Below are positions 23,062 to 56,283 of a stretch of DNA of 64,000 bases, piece after piece. How positions within the stretch are numbered: the stretch's first letter is position 1; each line of letters begins with the position of its first letter. The position numbers and the translations under genes are program-made. The notes under the pieces are model-generated. The model saw nothing but the letters and a program-made list of their open reading frames with translations. It made no database searches and had not been told where the DNA came from. Source of the stretch: Bdellovibrionales bacterium (GTDB lineage Bacteria > Pseudomonadota > Alphaproteobacteria > Micavibrionales > UBA2020); assembly GCA_038247245.1 (NCBI GenBank), contig JBBRVE010000004.1, positions 22,485 to 86,484 on the forward strand, read 5' to 3'.

Positions 23062-23601
23062 TTATAACGTAGGATTTTTGGGGTGACGCGGGGTGTCGTC
23101 GAGCGGGCCGGTCAAGGGGCCGGTGACGAGGCCATTTTGCGGCCCGTTTTGGGCGCAGTTTTCGCGCAGCTGCAGCAGTTCTTTTTTCACGGCGGCAAGT
23201 TCGGTGCGCAGCTGGTCGGCCTCGTAATCCTTGTCCATGAATTTGAGGCGCGAGACATAGGTCTGGCCGTTTTCCGACGGCACGGCGGCGGCGAAATTCC
23301 AGCCGCTGTCTTTCAGCAGGCGGAACATTTCCGTTTTACCGTCATGCACGACGGAGCGCAGGTAACCGGTATCGAGCGTGCGTGAACCCGGCGCCTCGAT
23401 CAGCAGGCGCGCCATGCGCACCTGATTGTTGGATACGGCCTTGGCCAGCGCCGCATCAAAAACCGCGGGCGGCGCCTCGATGTCTTTTTGCAGCAAGATG
23501 CGCAACGCCTCGATATTGCCTTCCTTGACCGCTGTCACCAGTTGCGATTTGTATTCGGTGATGGGGTCGTCTTTGCCGCCGAAGAATGTGCGAATGCTCA
23601 T
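23062..23601 (-). CDS. Ankyrin-like repeat protein with a C-terminal coiled-coil
   Basis: LVTAVKEGNIEALRILLQKDI...ALAKAVSNNQVRMARLLIEAPG...VVHDGKTEMFRLLKDSGWN are degenerate ANK-like helices, followed by DQLRTELAAVKKELLQLRE. Overlaps the upstream gene by 4 nt. Confidence 0.5.
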   Translation of the reverse strand: MSIRTFFGGKDDPITEYKSQLVTAVKEGNIEALRILLQKDIEAPPAVFDAALAKAVSNNQVRMARLLIEAPGSRTLDTGYLRSVVHDGKTEMFRLLKDSGWNFAAAVPSENGQTYVSRLKFMDKDYEADQLRTELAAVKKELLQLRENCAQNGPQNGLVTGPLTGPLDDTPRHPKNPTL

Positions 23602-28652: not shown

Positions 28653-29402
28653 TCAGGGTGATTTCGGCTTAAACGTCGCCGTGCGCGGTGCGGCAAGCGG
28701 CGTGCCCGCGCCGGTCTTCAAATTCTGGATCACGTTTTCGACGTCTTTTTTGCGTGCTGTTTCGGTGCGGTGTTCGACCACGATATTGATTTCGGATTCC
28801 AGCCCCGTTTCGATTGCGAATGTCATGTGCCGCGCTTCATCCAGCGCGGTGTTGCCCATTTTATCGCGCAGGGTTTCATCCATCCCATGCGCCAGCAGCA
28901 CGCGGATCACGTCCTGCGCGCCCCTGTCATCATCCGCCCAGATCGCGTAATGCAACGCGCTTTGTTCTTCGCGGTTCACGGCATTCACGGCTGCGCCATG
29001 TTTGATCAGCGCGGTTGCACAATCGGCGCAACCCGCGCGTGATGCCGACATCATCGGCGTATAAAGCTGCGCATTGCCAAGGTTGGCATCCGCGCCTTTT
29101 TCCAGCAGCCATTCGACGGCATGCACATGGCGCTTGGACGTTGCCACCAGCAGCGGCGTTTCGCCGACGATGTTGCGCGCATGGATATCCGCACCGGCAT
29201 TCAGCAAGGCTTCCATCACCTTCATATGCCCGTGATACGCGGCAAGGTGCAGCGCGGTCGTGCCCATCACCTGCTTGGTCGCCTTGTCGGCAACCGCTTC
29301 CTTCGCAAGGTTGGGATAGGCCGCCAGCATGTTGCGCACACCCTGGTCATGGCCGCGCGCTGCAAGGTCGAGGAATTGTTCAAGCAAAACCGGCTTCGAC
29401 AT
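28653..29402 (-). CDS. Ankyrin-repeat protein (tandem paralogue A)
   Basis: GTTALHLAAYHGHMKVMEALLNAGADIHARNIVGETPLLVATSKRHVHAVEWLLEKGADANL and further ANK repeats. Start at Met44 (ATG at 29402), 1 nt after the upstream stop. Confidence 0.8.
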   Translation of the reverse strand: MSKPVLLEQFLDLAARGHDQGVRNMLAAYPNLAKEAVADKATKQVMGTTALHLAAYHGHMKVMEALLNAGADIHARNIVGETPLLVATSKRHVHAVEWLLEKGADANLGNAQLYTPMMSASRAGCADCATALIKHGAAVNAVNREEQSALHYAIWADDDRGAQDVIRVLLAHGMDETLRDKMGNTALDEARHMTFAIETGLESEINIVVEHRTETARKKDVENVIQNLKTGAGTPLAAPRTATFKPKSP

Positions 29403-29403
29403 G

Positions 29404-30228
29404 TTACGGCGCTGCCCCTGCTGGTGGTTTCTTTTTAAAATGCGCGGTGGTGGGGCCGTGCAGCGGCTTGCCTGCGCCATGCTGGAACGGGGCGGCCAGT
29501 TTGCCGAAGCATTCCTTATGCGTTGCCACATCGTTGCGGTTCTTCATCAGCAGGGCGTGCGCGGCGGCGCTTTCGATAAACGCGGCGACTTCGAATTTTC
29601 CCTCGGCGCGGGCGTTATCGGCGGCTGTATACCCCTCCATATTGCGGAGATTGGCATTGATGCCGCGGTCCAGCAGCAGGCGGATCACGGGTTGCGGGCA
29701 GTTTTCGGCATGGATGGCGAAATGCAGCGCGCTGTCCATCGCCTCGCTGCGCGCATTGATTTTCGCTTTATGGTCCAGCAGCGTTTCGATCACCGCCATC
29801 GCCCTGTTACGCGCGGCATACATCAGGGGCGTGTAACCTTCGGAGGCTTTATGATTGGCGTTTGCGCCCTTTTGCAGCAGGAATGCCGCAACATCGGCCT
29901 GCGCATGCATCGCGGCTTCCATCAGCGGCGTCTGCCCCATCAAATCCTCGGCATCCAGCTTCGCGTGCGCCTGCACTAGATCCTGCACGATGCCCAGATG
30001 CCCGCCACGGGCGGCCAGATGCAATGCGGTTGAACCCGTTTGCATCCCATGCGCATCAAGCTTGCGCACTGAATGCACAAGCCCCTTGAAGTTGGCCAGC
30101 ATGTCGTTCACGGCAGCGCGGTCGCCATTCGCCGCCGCATCCAGAAAGCGCGTCACCAGCTTGCGGCGCGTCGTGCCCGATATCGGGCCCGTCGGTTTCG
30201 CGCTGCGGCTGTTAAATGTCGGCTTCAT
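29404..30228 (-). CDS. Ankyrin-repeat protein (tandem paralogue B)
   Basis: GSTALHLAARGGHLGIVQDLV...GQTPLMEAAMHAQADVAAFLLQKGANANHKASEGYTPLMYAARN. Start taken at Met14 (ATG at 30228). Confidence 0.8.
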   Translation of the reverse strand: MKPTFNSRSAKPTGPISGTTRRKLVTRFLDAAANGDRAAVNDMLANFKGLVHSVRKLDAHGMQTGSTALHLAARGGHLGIVQDLVQAHAKLDAEDLMGQTPLMEAAMHAQADVAAFLLQKGANANHKASEGYTPLMYAARNRAMAVIETLLDHKAKINARSEAMDSALHFAIHAENCPQPVIRLLLDRGINANLRNMEGYTAADNARAEGKFEVAAFIESAAAHALLMKNRNDVATHKECFGKLAAPFQHGAGKPLHGPTTAHFKKKPPAGAAP

Positions 30229-30521
30229 ATATGTCCTGGGAATCCAGCTTCGGTTAAGCATTTGCATAACACTTCGGATAGATCGCGCCTAGATGATTCG
30301 AGGATACATATATTACGGAATACTAATAAAGTTACTGACTCCGGACTCGCGCGGGGTTCAATCTTGCTGAATAACAGCTGTTCATGGTCATTTTCGGTTT
30401 ATTTTCAGCACCTTGTTGACAATGTTGCGGTGCGGAAGCAGATTGCGCTCACGAAACAAAATGTCGCCGTTAAGAAAAAGCAAAAACGCTGCGGCTGACA
30501 TAACAAAGAAAGACTTTAGGT

Positions 30522-41366: not shown

Positions 41367-41687
41367 TCAATGGCGCGACTTGTACCCGCCCGCCTTGCCG
41401 CCCTGCAAAACGAAAATCAGGCGGTAAATCAGGTAAAAGGTCAGGGCCGGAGCAAAGAACACCACACAACCGGGCAGCGCCTCTATCTTGCCGCCCATAG
41501 GGCCCATTTTCAGCATCAGGCTGTGAAAATCATTGTAGAGGCCGGGCGCGATTTTCTTGAACCATTCCGTGGTTGTCTGCAGCTTGATCATGTTTTTGAC
41601 GAACCAGAAATAACACAGGTCGTAAATGAACATGACAAAGGACGGTATCATCAGGATTTTGCCGGCTGCCTGAAAAAATTCCATCAT
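41367..41687 (-). CDS. Small membrane protein (106 aa, about 3 TM), last gene of the DotM/DotL-like operon
   Basis: Starts 2 nt after the DotL-like stop. Hydrophobic helices IPSFVMFIYDLCYFWFV and GCVVFFAPALTFYLIYRLIFVL. Confidence 0.55.
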   Translation of the reverse strand: MMEFFQAAGKILMIPSFVMFIYDLCYFWFVKNMIKLQTTTEWFKKIAPGLYNDFHSLMLKMGPMGGKIEALPGCVVFFAPALTFYLIYRLIFVLQGGKAGGYKSRH

Positions 41688-41689
41688 GA

Positions 41690-44290
41690 TTAGGTCTCTC
41701 CATCTTTCTTCTCGGCATCAACGCCGATGACATCCGCCCAGTTGAGCGGGGATTTAACTTGTTGATCGGCCGCCTTCGCCAATTGCTCCACCGCAGGCGC
41801 GGGGTCCCAGGGCGGTGACATCATGGGGGGCTGCTGTTGCACTGGCGGCTGCACTGGTGGCTGCACAGGTGCCTGAACCGGCGTAGCGGGTGCTTCGTTG
41901 CGCGCTTCGGCGACCGCGTTTTGCCCAACGGTCGCGGACGCGCCGCCGATGACATCCATCCACGAAATAGGTGCGGGGAGTGCGGCTGCAGATGCGGCCA
42001 CGGCCGCTTCCTTGGCAGGTGCGCCGCCCGCGCTGATGACGTCTTCCCACGACACCGCTTTTGGCGCTTGCGTTGCCTGCGCAGACTGTTGCGCCGCCTG
42101 CGCTTCGGTAACGGGCGGTTCCTTGCGAATGCTGCTGGATGATGCATCGGCAGCGCCGATGACCTGCATCCAGTTGAGCGGGCCTGTGTTGCCGGTTGCC
42201 TGTGCCACAGCCACGGCAGCGGCTTTTTCGGCTGGCGATGTGATGGCAGCGGTTGCGGGCGCGCCGGCACCGGTCGCAGGAGCATCCACGGCGGCTGCGT
42301 CTTCGGGTTTGATCGTGCTATGCGCTTCGGCGACCTGTGCGACCGCGTTGATGCCGCATTCCAAAAGGCTGCCGCCCGATTTTTTCGCGGCGGCAAAGCC
42401 TGCGGCCAGCGCCTCGATATCATTATTGGTGCCGGATTGCAGCGCGGCGGGGTCCCATTTCGGGTTGCGCAGCCGCTTGAGGATGTCGTTCACGTTACGC
42501 AGTGATTCCAGCGCCTCTTCCGCCGGCGGCGGGATAGGCAGGAAGCGGTGGACGCGCATCGATTTCGCATCGCCGATGTGCGAGTTATACACCTGCATCT
42601 CGACCACGCTCTTGCCGAAGGCGACAATCGCACGCCCCTCCGTGAAGCCTTTCAGGCCATCATAGGATGCGCGTGCGCGCTGTTGCACGTTTGCCTGCTG
42701 GCTGTCCATATACGCCTTGCCGGAACCACCGCCCTGCCCGCCGCGCGAGAAGCCGGAGACTTCGGTCACCAGCGCGGTACCGACAGTTTTTTCAAAAAAG
42801 TCTTTTGTCTGGGTCGGGTCTTCAAGCTTGCCGAACAGTTTGATGTTACAGTTTGCCGTGATGGACCGTGCTTCTTCCTTCACGCGTTTTTCCAGCGCGG
42901 GCAAATCCTGACCGGCGAAGACGAGCGAGAAGCCGAGCGAACGGGCCTGCGCCGCCATGACCGCCATACCCGACGCGGTATAGTAACCGACCTCGTCAAA
43001 GATCGCGATGAAGGGGGTGGAGGAGTTGGTGGGTTTGTTCTCGATCACGACGGATGATTCACCCTCGACCGAGTTACCGAGCGTCGCACCCATCATACCC
43101 TTCAGCGTGGAGGAAATGATTTTACCAAGGTTGGCCGTTTCATCGCCCGATTTTTCAAGGGCGGGGATCAGCACGATCAGGATGCGGCGATTCAGGACGA
43201 CGTCGAGCATGTCGATATCGGCCGCCTGCGTATCGAAGATAAATCCGTAATCGTCGCCAAGCGACTGCATGGAGCGCGTGAACTGCATGGAAAGGTAACC
43301 ATGCTGCTGGCGGGGGACGGAGGTATCGACCGCGCCCGCATCGGGTGGCATCGGCTTTTCGTTTCCTTCGTCGTCGAACACGTGGTCGACATAGCCGGGC
43401 AATTCGTTCAGGTAGCCCTTGACCGCCGCGCGCAACGATTCCGGCACCGCCGCGTCGCGGCTGAGCTTGATGATGGCCTTGAACAGCAGGAACTGGCGGA
43501 TGACGCCGATCGACAGCGGGATGTTCTGGTTTTCGCGTTTCCACACAAGGCAGGGCATCAGCGACGAGACAAGCGCGACGGCGCGTTCTTTCCACATCGC
43601 GTTGTCGCCTTCGGAATCCGGCATCAGCGAAGTGAGCATGTTCGTAAGGTAAGACGGCGAGCCCGAGGAGAACGGGTTCAGCGTGTTCGACGGCACGCGG
43701 CCCGACACGTTACCCGTCATATAGTTCATGATCAGCAAATCGTCGTCGCGGCCAAAGCGGCGTGCCATCGCCGAGATTGTCGACCACAAGGACGTATCCG
43801 CTTTACCGTCGATGTAAATGAATCCCGATGCCCAGCACAGCGCGTTGCAGGCATAGGATTTAAGGCCGTAGGTTTTACCCGAACCGGTGGTGCCGAGGTA
43901 AAGGCAGTGCGTGCGGGCATCCGAGTTGGTAAACCAGATTTCTTCGTTCGTTTCGTGGTCGTTGCCAAGATACAGGATCCCGTCGGCCATGCCGAGCGAC
44001 CCGTCGGGCTGTTTGAAATTGGGATCCTTGATCAACGCCGATTTCGGCAACTTGAACGGCAGTGACACCTTTTGCTTCATCAGCCAGCGGAAATAAAGGC
44101 AATAGATGATGAAAACGATATCGCCGAAGTACTGCAGTGCGGGCGTCGCCAGAAAGCCGGTCGCTACCATTGCAAAAATGATAGACGCAGTTGAGGGATC
44201 AAGCGCGGTATCCTTCATGCGCACGGTCCACGGGCGGGCGTCGCGGAGGAGATCCGAGCCTTTTATCTGATATTTTTCCCGCAGAGCCAC
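41690..44290 (-). CDS. Type IVB coupling protein, DotL/IcmO (IncI TrbC)-like ATPase with a long repeat-bearing C-terminal tail
   Basis: 866 aa, GTG start. Two N-terminal TMs, PFKLPKS, Walker A LGTTGSGKT, ARRFGRDDDLLIMNYMTGN, SNTLNPFSSGS and Walker B IAIFDEVGYY. These blocks match my recollection of Legionella DotL rather than VirD4/TraG. Confidence 0.8.
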   Translation of the reverse strand: MALREKYQIKGSDLLRDARPWTVRMKDTALDPSTASIIFAMVATGFLATPALQYFGDIVFIIYCLYFRWLMKQKVSLPFKLPKSALIKDPNFKQPDGSLGMADGILYLGNDHETNEEIWFTNSDARTHCLYLGTTGSGKTYGLKSYACNALCWASGFIYIDGKADTSLWSTISAMARRFGRDDDLLIMNYMTGNVSGRVPSNTLNPFSSGSPSYLTNMLTSLMPDSEGDNAMWKERAVALVSSLMPCLVWKRENQNIPLSIGVIRQFLLFKAIIKLSRDAAVPESLRAAVKGYLNELPGYVDHVFDDEGNEKPMPPDAGAVDTSVPRQQHGYLSMQFTRSMQSLGDDYGFIFDTQAADIDMLDVVLNRRILIVLIPALEKSGDETANLGKIISSTLKGMMGATLGNSVEGESSVVIENKPTNSSTPFIAIFDEVGYYTASGMAVMAAQARSLGFSLVFAGQDLPALEKRVKEEARSITANCNIKLFGKLEDPTQTKDFFEKTVGTALVTEVSGFSRGGQGGGSGKAYMDSQQANVQQRARASYDGLKGFTEGRAIVAFGKSVVEMQVYNSHIGDAKSMRVHRFLPIPPPAEEALESLRNVNDILKRLRNPKWDPAALQSGTNNDIEALAAGFAAAKKSGGSLLECGINAVAQVAEAHSTIKPEDAAAVDAPATGAGAPATAAITSPAEKAAAVAVAQATGNTGPLNWMQVIGAADASSSSIRKEPPVTEAQAAQQSAQATQAPKAVSWEDVISAGGAPAKEAAVAASAAALPAPISWMDVIGGASATVGQNAVAEARNEAPATPVQAPVQPPVQPPVQQQPPMMSPPWDPAPAVEQLAKAADQQVKSPLNWADVIGVDAEKKDGET

Positions 44291-44316: not shown

Positions 44317-44820
44317 TTACTTGCCGCCGAACAGCTGGTCCGCCGGTACCGGTTCACCTGGCTTGGCGTAGGGGTTACGGCCCAGTTCCGTGCCCTGCAT
44401 CGTGGGGCGCGCAGGCTGCGCATTGCCGCCCGCCATATAATTGCGCACGGCGGTCGATGCCGTATCGAGGACGAACAGCAAGAAGATGATCGCCAGCCCC
44501 CATTTGACGACGCGCCACAACGTGCCGTTGCCCTGATTGCCGCCCGCCTGCACATCGCCGCGCAGCATGGCGCGCGTGATCATCTTGTGCGCATGCGCAG
44601 CACTTTCGCGGTCGGGATAAGTCGCGATCACTTCTTCGGGCTGGCCGGATTTATTCAGGATGACGCTCGACTTGCCGCCTGCGTCGCGGATTTCAAGGGT
44701 TGCCGTTGCAAGCCCGGACATATCCGCGCGCCAGACTTTCGGCTGTTCGCCGGAAAATGACACCACGAGGGCGGAGCCGACAACCTTGGCATCCACGTCT
44801 TTGCTTGTGCAGGCGAACAT
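44317..44820 (-). CDS. Hypothetical single-TM protein (167 aa) inserted between the DotM-like and DotL-like genes
   Basis: AAGGAGA SD 6 nt before the ATG at 44820. About 110-aa soluble domain, TM (WGLAIIFLLFVLDTAS) and a Pro-rich tail. Confidence 0.55.
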   Translation of the reverse strand: MFACTSKDVDAKVVGSALVVSFSGEQPKVWRADMSGLATATLEIRDAGGKSSVILNKSGQPEEVIATYPDRESAAHAHKMITRAMLRGDVQAGGNQGNGTLWRVVKWGLAIIFLLFVLDTASTAVRNYMAGGNAQPARPTMQGTELGRNPYAKPGEPVPADQLFGGK

Positions 44821-44832
44821 ATCCACTCTCCT

Positions 44833-46011
44833 TTATGCGTCTTCTTTTTTCGCGCCTTTTTTCTCGAGCTCGGGGATCGGGCGGGCAGCGGTGCTTTTCA
44901 TGTAAACCTCGAGGCCGCGGATCACCTCGTCGAAACGGGGCGTCGGAATTTTCTGGCCGGCGATCAGCTCGTTCGTGAAATGCACGAGCGCGCCCGATGC
45001 CTCGGCGCAATAGGATTTGCGGCCCAGGTTGTTCAGCGGATACCAAAGCGTCCTGTCATGGCCGCGCATCCAGACGAATTCAGCGGGCGCCATGACGCCG
45101 CCTTCTTCGCGCGCGCGCATCACGCAACGCAGTATGGCGGTGGTTTCATAGGCATGCTGGTCGGCGAATTTGCGCAGCGCACCGCCGGTCTTGGGGTTTT
45201 TCATGACCGCCTTGACCTTGGCTTTCAGCTTGGCGGAGGCGCGGAAGCCGCCTTCGGGCGTCCAGCTTTCCGACATCATGTTCAGGATTTCTTCGCAATC
45301 CTTACGCTTGCGGATCAGCTTCAGCGCGCAGGCGGCATACAGGCATTGGGCGTGGATCGGTAGCGCATCGGGGCCTTCCCAGCGTTTGCCCAGCTGTTCG
45401 GCAAGGGCGTGATAGGCGGCGTTGTAATCAAGCTGGCCGCCGGAATAGCTGATTGAATGATAGGCGAGCCATTCTTCGGGCGACAGCGCCTCCGAAAACA
45501 GCGGCAGCTGTTCCGGCACTGGCTGGCCGGGAGCGCGGCCCGGCATCTTGCGCGGGTCGAATTTCAAAAACGGCTTGATCGCGGGGAATGATTTCGCCTG
45601 TTCCTGCATCAGCGTCTCGAGACCCATCTTGCGGCGGTATTGCGTGCCGGGGCCGCGGAAAATGGTAAAGACGGTCATGACTGCCATGATCGCAAGGAAG
45701 ATATATTTAAGCGGCACCACGGCGACAAGGGTGGAGCGCTTGATATGCTCGATCGTGATATCCTCGACCGGAGCCTTGGGCAGCCAGTTCTGCCAGACAT
45801 GCAAAAGCTCGCGGCCCTGCGCATCACCGATGCCGAAATTTTTGCCGTAGACGCCGCGCACGACCCACATTTCGGCGATGCGCACATAGCGGACCATGTT
45901 GGTCAGTTCCGCGCTAAAGAAATGCCAGATCACCCAGCACAGGCCGGCGACTATGCCCACGATGATCGTGAACATGATGAAATCTTCATGCGGACTTTTC
46001 TGCTGCGACAC
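44833..46011 (-). CDS. DotM/IcmP (IncI TrbA)-like inner-membrane protein
   Basis: 392 aa. Two TMs (aa ~13-33 and ~95-117), then a cytoplasmic domain with HAYETTAILRCVMRAREEGGVMAPAEFVWMRGHDRTLWYPLNNLGRK, resembling the DotM C-terminal domain as I recall it. Sits immediately upstream of the DotL-like gene, as in icmP-icmO. Confidence 0.65.
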   Translation of the reverse strand: MSQQKSPHEDFIMFTIIVGIVAGLCWVIWHFFSAELTNMVRYVRIAEMWVVRGVYGKNFGIGDAQGRELLHVWQNWLPKAPVEDITIEHIKRSTLVAVVPLKYIFLAIMAVMTVFTIFRGPGTQYRRKMGLETLMQEQAKSFPAIKPFLKFDPRKMPGRAPGQPVPEQLPLFSEALSPEEWLAYHSISYSGGQLDYNAAYHALAEQLGKRWEGPDALPIHAQCLYAACALKLIRKRKDCEEILNMMSESWTPEGGFRASAKLKAKVKAVMKNPKTGGALRKFADQHAYETTAILRCVMRAREEGGVMAPAEFVWMRGHDRTLWYPLNNLGRKSYCAEASGALVHFTNELIAGQKIPTPRFDEVIRGLEVYMKSTAARPIPELEKKGAKKEDA

Positions 46012-46201: not shown

Positions 46202-46276
46202 GCCGACGTAGCACAGCGGTAGTGCAGCGGTTTTGTAAACCGAAGGTCGGGAGTTCAATCCTCTCCGTCGGCACCA
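46202..46276 (+). tRNA. tRNA-Thr (anticodon UGU)
   Basis: Hand-folded cloverleaf: acceptor GCCGACG/CGTCGGC, D arm GCAC-AGCGGTA-GTGC, anticodon loop TT-TGT-AA, T arm GGGAG-TTCAATC-CTCTC, encoded CCA. 75 nt. Confidence 0.9.
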
Positions 46277-47172: not shown

Positions 47173-48402
47173 TTAAGCCGCCAGCACCTGTGTGGCGTCC
47201 TTCATCTGCTGTTTCAATTGCTTGGCAGCAAGGGCGTAGCCACCGTCCGATCCATCGATGAAATGGAAATGCTGGCTGGCATAGTCAAAAATAATACAGG
47301 TCATCAGCGCAGAGGGCGCGGAATGGATGCCGTAGAAAATCTTGCCCTGCCCCACCAAAATGTCGAAATAATGGCGCAGTGATGCTTCTTTTTCCGCCGA
47401 TACGTCCATCACAAGACGTAGCGTGTTATCGAACTTGATATAGTCGTTATGCGACTCCAGCGATTTCTTATACGTCTTGCCATCCAGCGTGCCGGATTTC
47501 AGGCCGAACCTGAACATCAGCTTGCCGATGCTCGACATCAGCACGGTTTCCCAAAGATATTTCAGATAGGCCTTGCGCCCCTGCCCGCGCGTCTGCAACT
47601 TGGCTTCAGCCGACAACCGCGCGGGAGTGTTGCCGAGCGTCAGCTGGCCGGCAGATACCGGTTTCCAGTTGGCGGCAGGGCCGCATAATTCTTCGATATT
47701 GCCGAGCATGTCGGCATAGAGCGCGGCTTTTTGCGTATCGTCGCCCTGCCGTGCCTGCACGATAATGGAAAGATCGACGCCGTTGCGCGCATAAAGCGGC
47801 TGCCAGCGGCATTGCAGCCCTTTGAAATCGGGCGGCTTGGCGGCAAGCGTATGCTTGGGGAACAGCGCGGTGATGTCGTGCTTTGCGCCCTCCACTTTAT
47901 CTTTCACAATCTTTTCGGCGAGTGTCACGCCATCACCCGATAGCGCTGCCTGATAAACACCCGGCGCGACTTCCATTTTTGCGACACGCACCGGCGCGTT
48001 CATCTGGCGCAGCTGTTCGGCGAAAATAATGCCGGCGCGCATTTCGAGGTTGAAGATTTCTTCGGACATCAGCCGCGTGCCGTATAGTGCGGCGGCAACA
48101 TCATAAACAAGCGCGGCAGGCACCAGCAGCGTCGCGCCATCGCCGCCGAAGATATAGGCGATTTCTTCGCGCCCCGCCGCATTCAGCACCGCGGTGATGC
48201 TGGAGGCCGAGATCATGTTGACGTCTTTGTATTTCCCTGCCTCGATCGCCTTGGTCGAACCCACGATATCGACAATCACCACGCACCAGTCATCGGGGAT
48301 GTCGTTGTGTTGCGCGATATCGAGCATCCCGCCGCCCGAGGCCAAGGGCGGAAGGTCTTTATAAAAACTGCGCGATGCTGAAGCGTCCATGACCGACAGC
48401 AT
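47173..48402 (-). CDS. Class III nucleotidyl-cyclase-like protein (possibly DUF3095 family; name from memory)
   Basis: WCVVIVDIVGSTKAIEAGKYKDVN and IFGGDGATLLVP resemble the two metal-Asp segments of the cyclase homology domain. About 250 aa of extra C-terminal sequence. Confidence 0.65.
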   Translation of the reverse strand: MLSVMDASASRSFYKDLPPLASGGGMLDIAQHNDIPDDWCVVIVDIVGSTKAIEAGKYKDVNMISASSITAVLNAAGREEIAYIFGGDGATLLVPAALVYDVAAALYGTRLMSEEIFNLEMRAGIIFAEQLRQMNAPVRVAKMEVAPGVYQAALSGDGVTLAEKIVKDKVEGAKHDITALFPKHTLAAKPPDFKGLQCRWQPLYARNGVDLSIIVQARQGDDTQKAALYADMLGNIEELCGPAANWKPVSAGQLTLGNTPARLSAEAKLQTRGQGRKAYLKYLWETVLMSSIGKLMFRFGLKSGTLDGKTYKKSLESHNDYIKFDNTLRLVMDVSAEKEASLRHYFDILVGQGKIFYGIHSAPSALMTCIIFDYASQHFHFIDGSDGGYALAAKQLKQQMKDATQVLAA

Positions 48403-55344: not shown

Positions 55345-55419
55345 GGACACATAGCTCAGCGGTAGAGCACTATCTTGACATGGTAGGGGTCACAGGTTCA
55401 ATCCCTGTTGTGTCCACCA
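55345..55419 (+). tRNA. tRNA-Val (anticodon GAC)
   Basis: Hand-folded: acceptor GGACACA/TGTGTCC, D arm GCTC-AGCGGTA-GAGC, anticodon arm CTATC-TTGACAT-GGTAG, T arm ACAGG-TTCAATC-CCTGT, encoded CCA. 75 nt. Confidence 0.9.
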
Positions 55420-55524: not shown

Positions 55525-56283
55525 ATGGCGACTCTCAGAAAACGCAGTGACCGGTGGCATGTTCAGATTCGCAGGCGGGGGCATAAATCCCTTACCCATT
55601 CATTTTGCCTGAAAGAGGATGCTTTGGCATGGGCTAGGGCTATGGAGACCGCCATAGACCGTAAAGCCCTCCCTGGAGACCAATCGGCTATTGAAGATAA
55701 AACCCTCTGGGACCTTCTGCAAAAGTATCTTGATGAAGTCACTCCCAAAAAGAGAAGTCATAGGATTGAGGCCAATTTTATCAAAGCTTTCATGCGTATG
55801 GAAATCGCACAGAAGAAACTGACGGCTATCAGCCCCGCCGACTTTGCCTCCTTGCGGGATAAACGCCTGCAAGAGATTCAGGCTTCAACCTTTAACAGGC
55901 AGATCGGCATGATCCAGAGCGCGTATGAGACGGCTATCAGAGAATGGAACTGGCCTCTGACTGAAAACCCTTTAAAGCGTATCCGCAAGCCAAAAAACGA
56001 CCGTCCAAGAAACAGGCGACTAAACACCAATGAACTGACTAGGCTAATGGAGGAAATCAAAAGGACAAGAAACCCACTGTTAAAACCTGTTGTGCTATTC
56101 GCCATTGAAACGGGTATGAGGCAAGGGGAAATCCTACGAACCGAATGGAAACACTTAGACCGAGACAAGAAGATTCTATTGATCCCCCTAACCAAGAACG
56201 GAGAGCCAAGAACAATTCCGCTTTCCAAGGCTGCTTTAAGCATACTGGAGGACGTTAAGCAGACTGATGAGCGTATAACGTAG
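55525..56283 (+). pseudogene. Tyrosine-type integrase, C-terminally truncated
   Basis: N-terminus MATLRKRSDRWHVQIRRRGHKSLTHSF..KEDALAWA and the catalytic-domain start FAIETGMRQGEIL...TKNGEPRTIPL are present. The ORF stops before the HxxR and catalytic Tyr regions expected about 90 aa further on. Confidence 0.65.

Follow-up and report, generated by a model that had tools for sequence, protein, structure and literature searches.

The type IVB coupling protein DotL (IcmO) of Legionella binds DotN, IcmS-IcmW and LvgA through its C-terminal tail (PMC7280309, PMC7251119, PMC3441705). This tail is flexible: it bears IcmSW, which it swings toward the channel, and presents binding sites for adaptors and substrates close by. 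It also runs along DotM and DotN, forming the largest interfaces of the coupling complex (PMC7280309). The subject of this paper is a DotL-like coupling protein of 866 residues (the query), encoded in 64,000 nucleotides of DNA from a Bdellovibrionales bacterium (GenBank assembly GCA_038247245.1, contig JBBRVE010000004.1, positions 22,485 to 86,484), a stretch that is called the window below. Its tail carries four copies of a nine-residue motif built around a tryptophan (the W-motif), which recurs in the DotL proteins of one alphaproteobacterial lineage.

The coupling protein TraD of the F plasmid also has a C-terminal extension, which binds the TraM tetramer and is the basis of the Pfam family TraG-D_C, 'TraM recognition site of TraD and TraG'. 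The extension of TraD is disordered and rich in Gln and Pro, and a short peptide at its end, both acidic and aromatic, plugs a hydrophobic pocket of the oligomeric partner. Docking platforms on coupling-protein tails are already known, then, from DotL with IcmSW, DotN and LvgA and from TraD with TraM. Two other relatives of the query, both of the I-type/IVB lineage, are IncI1 TrbC, which has a homologous ATPase domain (query residues 47-489, 29.5% identity), and a plasmid DotL of Piscirickettsia salmonis (query residues 4-603, 41% identity).

Like Legionella DotL, the query has a membrane anchor, an ATPase domain and a long C-terminal extension, and a dotM gene is adjacent. However, there is no sequence similarity between the two beyond about residue 600. 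The preliminary description of this DNA had likened the tail to the adaptor platform of Legionella, a comparison that stands as a functional analogy but not as homology: the C-terminal extension shows no homology to DotL residues of about 590-783 (the alignment ends at query residue 598), and residues 591-866 have no sequence match in the PDB even at E <= 10. While the Legionella tail is a single long stretch wrapped around folded adaptors (DotL672-783 in the case of IcmSW), the tail here is a disordered spacer with four 9-residue motifs. With TraD the query shares a disordered extension with a short motif near the C-terminus (here a median of 10-11 residues away across homologues), but TraD has a single terminal motif with its aromatic residue at the very C-terminus, whereas the four copies here are internal and have a different sequence. 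Also unlike the TraD case, relaxosome genes are absent from the vicinity, and the locus lies on the chromosome, with its synteny kept among genomes. The tails of TrbC and of Piscirickettsia DotL differ in lacking the pattern W-x-x-[VILM]-[VILM], that of TrbC being basic and that of Piscirickettsia rich in Asp, Glu, Ile and Leu. A PDB sequence search with the Piscirickettsia tail returned nothing of use. No plasmid record covers at least 80% of the query. The W-motif tail is a lineage-specific alternative to the Legionella-type tail.

The coupling protein and the four motifs of its tail

The coupling protein and the parts of its C-terminal region that concern the motif are as follows (window positions and strand).

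41690..44290 (-): DotL/IcmO-like type IVB coupling protein, 866 residues (Pfam TraG-D_C, phmmer to DotL)
42296..42520 (-): conserved helical region, residues 591-665, between the ATPase domain and the disordered tail (AlphaFold2 and conserved columns)
41693..42292 (-): disordered Ala/Pro/Gln-rich tail, residues 667-866 (AlphaFold2 confidence mostly below 50)
42155-42181 (-): W-motif copy 1, PLNWMQVIG, residues 704-712 (P704-G712)
42032-42058 (-): W-motif copy 2, AVSWEDVIS, residues 745-753 (A745-S753), the most variable copy, missing in some homologues
41945-41971 (-): W-motif copy 3, PISWMDVIG, residues 774-782 (P774-G782)
41723-41749 (-): W-motif copy 4, PLNWADVIG, residues 848-856 (P848-G856), followed by 10 residues to the C-terminus

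The assignment to the DotL type, first proposed from the translation, is borne out by three lines of evidence and places the query in the I-type/IVB branch of the VirD4/TraD superfamily. Query residues 6-598 align with residues 8-602 of L. pneumophila DotL/IcmO (6sz9_A) with E=1.5e-140 in phmmer, the Pfam family TraG-D_C (PF12696) matches with 36.9 bits against a cut-off of 22 (4e-09), and a DotM homologue adjoins. The best NCBIfam match is the IncI TrbC equivalog (NF041447, TrbC_conju), which scores 377.8 bits, below its cut-off of 800; by this score the query is a relative of IncI TrbC, not an equivalog. Conservation was followed in the best 120 homologues (52-96% identical; nearly all complete ones with the motif), with an alignment of 116. 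The GTTGSGKT segment of the query aligns with the P-loop of DotL, and the columns G133-T-T-G-x-G-K139 are invariant across the 116 homologues.

The domain order is an N-terminal hydrophobic region, a nucleotide-binding domain, a helical region and a disordered tail. The hydrophobic segment is found at about residue 34, and the coupling protein is membrane-embedded. In an AlphaFold2 model of the full-length protein, built on the 116-sequence alignment, the helical region consists of helices 591-608, 623-637 and 642-656, with a predicted local distance difference test score (pLDDT) of about 77-93 and with columns that are conserved among the homologues. The helices of residues 591-660 occupy the position where Legionella DotL binds DotN. 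The tail that follows is 26% Ala, 12% Pro and 8.5% Gln, and has a net charge of -9. The preliminary description had placed a low-complexity tail in the last 230 or so residues; it is indeed of low complexity and is predicted to be disordered by the pLDDT check that had been proposed (mostly below 50), but its length is about 200 residues (about 667-866), since residues 591-660 form confident helices.

All four 9-mers are in the DotL frame at the positions first given, except that the end of copy 1 had been set two bases too far, at 42183 instead of 42181; the distance of 10 residues from copy 4 to the C-terminus agrees with the translation. The pattern W-x-[DQ]-V-I-[GS] has no other match in the six frames of the window. 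When the last 246 residues are shuffled 200,000 times with their composition preserved, 199,957 shuffles have no match, 43 have one and none has two or more, against the four observed. As DNA, the copies are only 66-84% identical and are dispersed rather than tandem, and are therefore not recent DNA duplicates.

The motif is well kept among the homologues. In the 116 proteins there are 382 copies, from one to five in each and most often four (one copy in 2 proteins, two in 22, three in 33, four in 58 and five in 1). The family consensus is P(-3) [LIMVF](-2) [SNT](-1) W x [DEQ] [VIL] [IL] G. Position -1 is Ser in 284 copies, Asn in 45, Thr in 24 and Asp in 4, while position +2 is Asp in 229, Glu in 70 and Gln in 21. 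Identity per column reaches 80-90% within the motifs and no more than 30% in the linkers. Conservation in orthologues, which had been chosen beforehand as the test by which the idea of a functional motif could fail, is thus observed for the motif and not for the linkers. In the 58 four-copy homologues, each copy has its own distinctive sequence. Copy 1 is GPL[NS]WM[EQ]VIG, with invariant P, W and G; copy 2 is KPVSW[ED]D[VI][IL][GS]; copy 3 is APLSWMDVIG; and copy 4 is P[LM]SWADVIG, with invariant D and G. Since each copy keeps its own flavour across genomes, the copies are old and individually maintained. The spacings between successive copies range from 28 to 96, from 27 to 87 and, between the tryptophans of copies 3 and 4, from 41 to 134 residues. 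Orthologous copies with their own flavour, set at variable spacings, are the signature of short linear motifs in a disordered region, and each copy here is a conserved island within a poorly conserved, compositionally biased and disordered context.

Several synonymous codons are used at the conserved Ser (AGC and TCN), Val (GTC, GTG and GTT) and Asp (GAT and GAC) positions, as well as at those of Gly and Pro. This turnover at conserved residues indicates selection on the peptide rather than on the DNA. Open reading frames that overlap the tail (for example 41821-42423 on the minus strand and 41898-42665 on the plus strand) were considered and are taken as artefacts of GC-rich sequence, because conservation and synonymous variation follow the DotL frame.

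In the AlphaFold2 model, short helices start exactly at the tryptophans of the first three copies: W707 (707-710), W748 (748-753) and W777 (777-781). The motifs have no other secondary structure, and copy 4 is not helical in the model. The rules of helix capping, which concern the N-cap, N3, the hydrophobic staple and the capping box, are established knowledge. The residue preferences at positions -1 and +2 fit the statistics for N-cap and N3, and so are consistent with reading the motif as a one-turn helix.

Three other elements of the tail lie between the copies.

42104..42127 (-): second conserved island RKEPPVTE, residues 722-729, a conservation peak between W-motif copies 1 and 2
41825..41881 (-): variable Pro/Gln-rich spacer PVQAPVQPPVQPPVQQQPP, residues 804-822, which contains a 12-nt tandem repeat
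41807..41815 (-): PPW island, residues 826-828, between W-motif copies 3 and 4

The second island takes the form [LV]RRDPPV[TV]E in about half of the 116 homologues. In the PPW island the Pro-Pro columns are about 80% conserved, and PPW itself is present in 15 of the 116. The near-tandem 12-nt units reported earlier are recovered by Tandem Repeats Finder as a repeat with a period of 12 nt and 3.2 copies at 41838-41875, within the PVQ-rich stretch of residues 804-822.

Distribution of the motif among DotL proteins

A scan with one genome per species gives 416 relatives of the query DotL. The best of them, 97% identical, is in OZ257145.1, a 3.3-Mb chromosome titled 'MAG: Alphaproteobacteria bacterium', and the titles of many others name Micavibrio sp., Rhodospirillaceae or Alphaproteobacteria. 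The motif-bearing lineage is alphaproteobacterial and Micavibrio-related. Comparison of 80 of the 416 loci separates two groups, a motif-bearing clade (loci L005-L037) and a sister clade of true Micavibrio (L038-L083). In the former, similarity to the query generally reaches further into the tail, and every complete DotL has two to four copies of the motif. In the latter, which includes chromosomes of Micavibrio aeruginosavorus, similarity mostly ends at about residue 650-700. Even under a relaxed pattern, the W-motif is absent from 36 of the 46 sister-clade tails, and the remaining 10 each contain a single variant copy (for example PLSWDELVD or PISWEELVN).

The sister-clade tails are likewise rich in Ala, Pro and Gln, and other aromatic mini-motifs are present in those of L056, L068, L072, L074 and most of L038-L083. 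The sequence G[ND]PM[GS]FF appears once or twice per tail in about 27 of the 46 proteins. PAIFG[GA], which is reminiscent of FG repeats, appears three to seven times per tail in four genomes. PMSFF and PLSWM have in common a core of Pro, a hydrophobic residue, Ser, an aromatic residue and a hydrophobic residue.

Within the loci compared, the motif is specific to the tails of DotL proteins. Of 113 six-frame matches in the window and 1.13 Mb of related loci, 112 fall inside such tails, and the sole match outside them sits in an open stretch of 26 codons. A motif profile searched against 1.84 billion representative proteins gives six matches at E <= 0.001, five of which are DotL tail fragments. 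No non-DotL protein with at least two copies was found in this search, which is blind to single copies because one copy scores below significance, so that single copies elsewhere are possible. For degenerate DNA patterns of the motif, the estimated number of chance matches runs from tens (strictest pattern, genome collection) to hundreds or thousands (broader patterns or larger collections), enough to drown a single-copy signal. Full-length DotLs are not listed by it, probably because the 50% clustering represents them by relatives without the motif. The sixth match, P0126 (184 residues), has FQSLFSWMTLIG repeated six times at regular spacing and is most likely a translated DNA repeat rather than a relative.

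The motif does not occur in the tails inspected, which are those of Piscirickettsia DotL, IncI1 TrbC and a DotL-like protein of a Bosea plasmid, and a full-text literature search for the motif strings returned no paper. The earlier impression that the arrangement is new to DotL proteins agrees with both results: the literature searched describes no coupling protein whose disordered tail bears a sharply defined Trp motif in four copies.

A putative docking array and its alternatives

The preliminary description had suggested that the copies dock one partner in a multivalent way, and had listed small co-encoded proteins, the DotM-like protein and substrates among the candidates. Three neighbours of dotL on the same strand bear on the question of what the tail may bind.

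44833..46011 (-): DotM/IcmP homologue, 392 residues (PF23127 DotM_C, 4e-44)
44317..44820 (-): X (orf167 of the preliminary description), a small bitopic protein between dotM and dotL, 169 residues from an upstream GTG
41367..41687 (-): Y (orf106), a small two-transmembrane protein directly downstream of dotL, with no family match

The four 9-mers are probably, at moderate confidence, genuine short linear motifs that form a docking array on the flexible, disordered, acidic and cytoplasmic tail of DotL. Each motif would be a self-contained one-turn helix with Pro at N'' and Gly as the terminating residue. The hydrophobic residue at N' could pack on Val at N4 as a hydrophobic staple, and the Ser, Asn or Thr N-cap could pair with Asp, Glu or Gln at N3 as a capping box. 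Trp (N1) and Ile (N5) would then lie on one exposed face, making a hydrophobic knob beside the conserved acidic residue. Strung on Ala/Pro/Gln spacers whose length is free to vary, these docking sites would be presented at the cytoplasmic face of the coupling complex, and a hexameric DotL, such as has been modelled for Legionella, would surround the cytoplasmic opening of the secretion channel with as many as 24 of them. A partner with a hydrophobic pocket beside a basic residue would be caught by these sites and kept close to the channel. In this lineage the W-motif tail would replace the unrelated IcmSW/LvgA-binding tail of Legionella DotL.

Among the candidate partners, X has several distinctive features. 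Its position between dotM and dotL is conserved in both clades. It has 21 database homologues, all hypothetical, and no Pfam or other family match; a PDB sequence search with its profile gave nothing useful, and no homology was found to the hypothetical gene between dotL and dotM in Piscirickettsia. The AlphaFold2 model of X (pLDDT 68, and 73-83 in the N-terminal domain) has six strands and a helix at 73-97, which make up a domain of residues 11-97, and a transmembrane helix at 100-131. In a Foldseek search of the PDB the best E value is 0.15, which is not significant, and the top of the list is dominated by PH, PTB and FERM-F3 domains, among them the GRK2 PH domain (probability 0.95), FERM F3, the bacterial PH domain 3hsa and the PTB-peptide complexes of X11 and CCM2. 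Short peptides are classic ligands of PH and PTB domains. At its C-terminus X ends in G-x-P-V-P-A-D-x-L-F (PVPADQLF in the query genome), conserved in both clades, which might serve as another docking motif, on the opposite side of the membrane.

A parallel for the recognition of such a motif is found in the PH domain of TFIIH p62/Tfb1, whose ligands include the segments W133-E-E-V136 in XPC and F408-V-E-V411 in UVSSA. Both segments lie in acidic disordered regions, and two pockets of the domain receive their aromatic residue and their Val (PMC5727438). These ligands have the pattern aromatic(i)-x-acid(i+2)-Val(i+3), as does W-x-[DE]-V-I-G in the -9 tail here. The p62 system differs in being eukaryotic and unrelated. 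By analogy, the PH-like prediction and the p62 pattern make X a reasonable lead, and its predicted cytoplasmic, membrane-tethered PH-like domain may be regarded as the leading candidate partner, still a rather doubtful one. Alternatively, the gene for the partner, whether an adaptor, a chaperone or a substrate, may lie at another place in the genome.

Several observations weigh against a docking array or against X as its reader. Motif pLDDT is about 40-60 in the full-length model, with no confident intramolecular docking. XPC and UVSSA bind p62 as an extended strand, whereas the W-motif is predicted to be helical. The PH-like call for X derives from non-significant Foldseek matches and a shallow alignment of 21 sequences. 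X and DotM are also present in the sister clade, whose tails carry no W-motif or one variant copy; neither is specifically tied to the multi-copy motif. Finally, DotB, DotC, DotD and IcmT have been seen in sister-clade genomes only (L068 and L087).

The same facts allow other roles for the motif. The copies might bind back on the ATPase or all-alpha domain of DotL, in the same or a neighbouring protomer, or on the cytoplasmic domain of DotM, and act as an autoinhibitory or assembly latch. The large interfaces that the Legionella tail forms along DotM and DotN (PMC7280309) make this conceivable, DotM is encoded in the dotL operon at the loci compared, and pLDDT rises modestly at copies 1 and 3 (54 at 701-710, 54-62 at 771-790) over the neighbouring linker (about 36-45). 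Yet the motifs remain at low pLDDT with the whole DotL chain present, linker lengths that vary up to four-fold are a poor fit to a fixed intramolecular geometry, one latch does not need four copies, and DotM is equally conserved in the sister clade, which does not have the multi-copy motif; a latch is judged improbable. A sticker-and-spacer polymer, somewhat less probable still, would have the Trp motifs as weak stickers, with the tails of an oligomer forming a dynamic mesh or condensate at the channel entrance that concentrates or filters substrates as FG repeats do. The copies are indeed multivalent, short and hydrophobic-aromatic, set in long and variable Ala/Pro/Gln spacers, and the PAIFG[GA] and G[ND]PM[GS]FF mini-motifs of the sister clade occupy spacers of the same type. 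However, nine constrained positions with an invariant Trp and a near-invariant Asp and Gly are more specific than typical stickers, and the position-specific flavour of each copy suggests specific recognition.

It is very unlikely that the motifs serve as interfacial anchors by which the tail would lie along the inner membrane. Although Trp, Leu, Ile and Val are residues of the membrane interface, and DotL is itself embedded in the membrane, the gain estimated for PLSWMDVIG by our own arithmetic on the established Wimley-White scale amounts to no more than about -1 kcal/mol, since the conserved Asp carries a high cost. The net charge of -9 on the tail would cause it to be repelled by an anionic membrane, and a lipid-binding element does not require a near-invariant Asp/Glu at +2 or Gly at +5. 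Least credible of all is the notion that the repeats are functionless low-complexity sequence left by replication slippage in a GC-rich gene. A true slippage-type repeat does exist in the tail, at 41838-41875, and tail length varies widely among relatives, but the motif copies are neither tandem nor close in DNA sequence (66-84%), homologues as distant as 52% identity retain their position, order and sequence but not the spacers, and synonymous codon turnover shows purifying selection on the protein. Conservation and codon data contradict this explanation.

The docking array also has a more far-reaching form, about as improbable as the latch. The folded adaptor platform of the Legionella type may have been replaced by an array of pre-formed Trp-x-Asp-Val-Ile mini-helices, either read by the predicted PH-like domain of X, as an unrecognised subunit of the coupling complex, or acting as FG-repeat-like stickers in a selective, multivalent capture zone at the mouth of the channel. 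If true, a mini-helix array read by X or an FG-like capture zone would be a new principle of substrate recruitment to a type IV secretion system.

The choice of substrates by type IVB systems is understood almost only from Legionella, where the tail of DotL holds the IcmSW/LvgA adaptors and DotM binds Glu-rich signals. The lineage described here keeps DotL and DotM, yet has an unrelated tail of repeated, sharply defined 9-residue motifs. The repeated motif is a simple and mutable handle on what a non-Legionella coupling complex recruits, and X and Y come out as two conserved, unannotated operon partners.

The dot operon, the rest of the secretion machine and neighbouring genes

The same gene order, dotM-X-dotL(-Y), is seen again in chromosomal contigs as long as 2.6 Mb, and GC content is uniform across the dot operon. 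DotM homologues are found with phmmer in 78 of the related loci; the one in the window scores 162 bits against NCBIfam NF033890, below the cut-off of 230. Y, which is almost entirely membrane-embedded, is next to dotL in 22 loci with at least two motif copies and in none of the 46 sister-clade loci (jackhmmer). This link to the motif is suggestive, but as a strict correlate Y was rejected, since it is absent beside several four-copy DotLs.

No other secretion genes, including those of the remainder of the type IVB machine (DotB, DotC, DotD and DotO), are present in the 64-kb window. In the sister clade, dotC-dotB-icmT lie directly upstream of dotM-X-dotL in L068 (1-3766), and L087 (8611-11528) encodes an SLT protein, DotD (PF16816), DotC/TraI (PF16932), DotB and IcmT (PF28014). 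With a sister-clade DotB as query, the best 120 matches are all apparently from the sister clade (81-96% identical), and none is on a long contig of the motif-bearing clade. Homologues of DotN and IcmW were not found by tblastn (with Piscirickettsia DotN and a partial IcmW) in the window and 86 loci, about 1.1 Mb around dotL. The M. aeruginosavorus chromosomes L040 and L059 carry DotL and DotM. Micavibrio, the best-known relative, was reported to have no type IV secretion system. The presence of DotL, DotM, DotB, DotC, DotD and IcmT homologues in Micavibrio-related bacteria is relevant to the way in which these epibiotic predators, and relatives of theirs that have not been cultured, attack other cells or live in them.

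Elsewhere the window consists of ordinary chromosomal DNA, with relA/spoT, clpB, ribonucleotide reductase, pyruvate kinase, kup and ankyrin-repeat open reading frames. The last are located at 23062-23601, 28653-29531 and 29404-30267 (-), and in a related 2.6-Mb chromosome (L001, 13011-14323) two ankyrin genes directly follow dotL-Y. Such repeats are characteristic of effectors directed at eukaryotic hosts, which would be unexpected for a predator of bacteria. A tRNA-Thr gene (46202-46276, +) lies just beyond the start of dotM. Farther away, a tRNA-Val gene (55345-55419, +) is followed by a phage-type integrase open reading frame (55525-56283, +), a possible integration site that is unrelated to the dot operon. 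The operon itself is adjoined by a gene for a DUF3095 protein (E=1.9e-108) at 47173-48402 (-).

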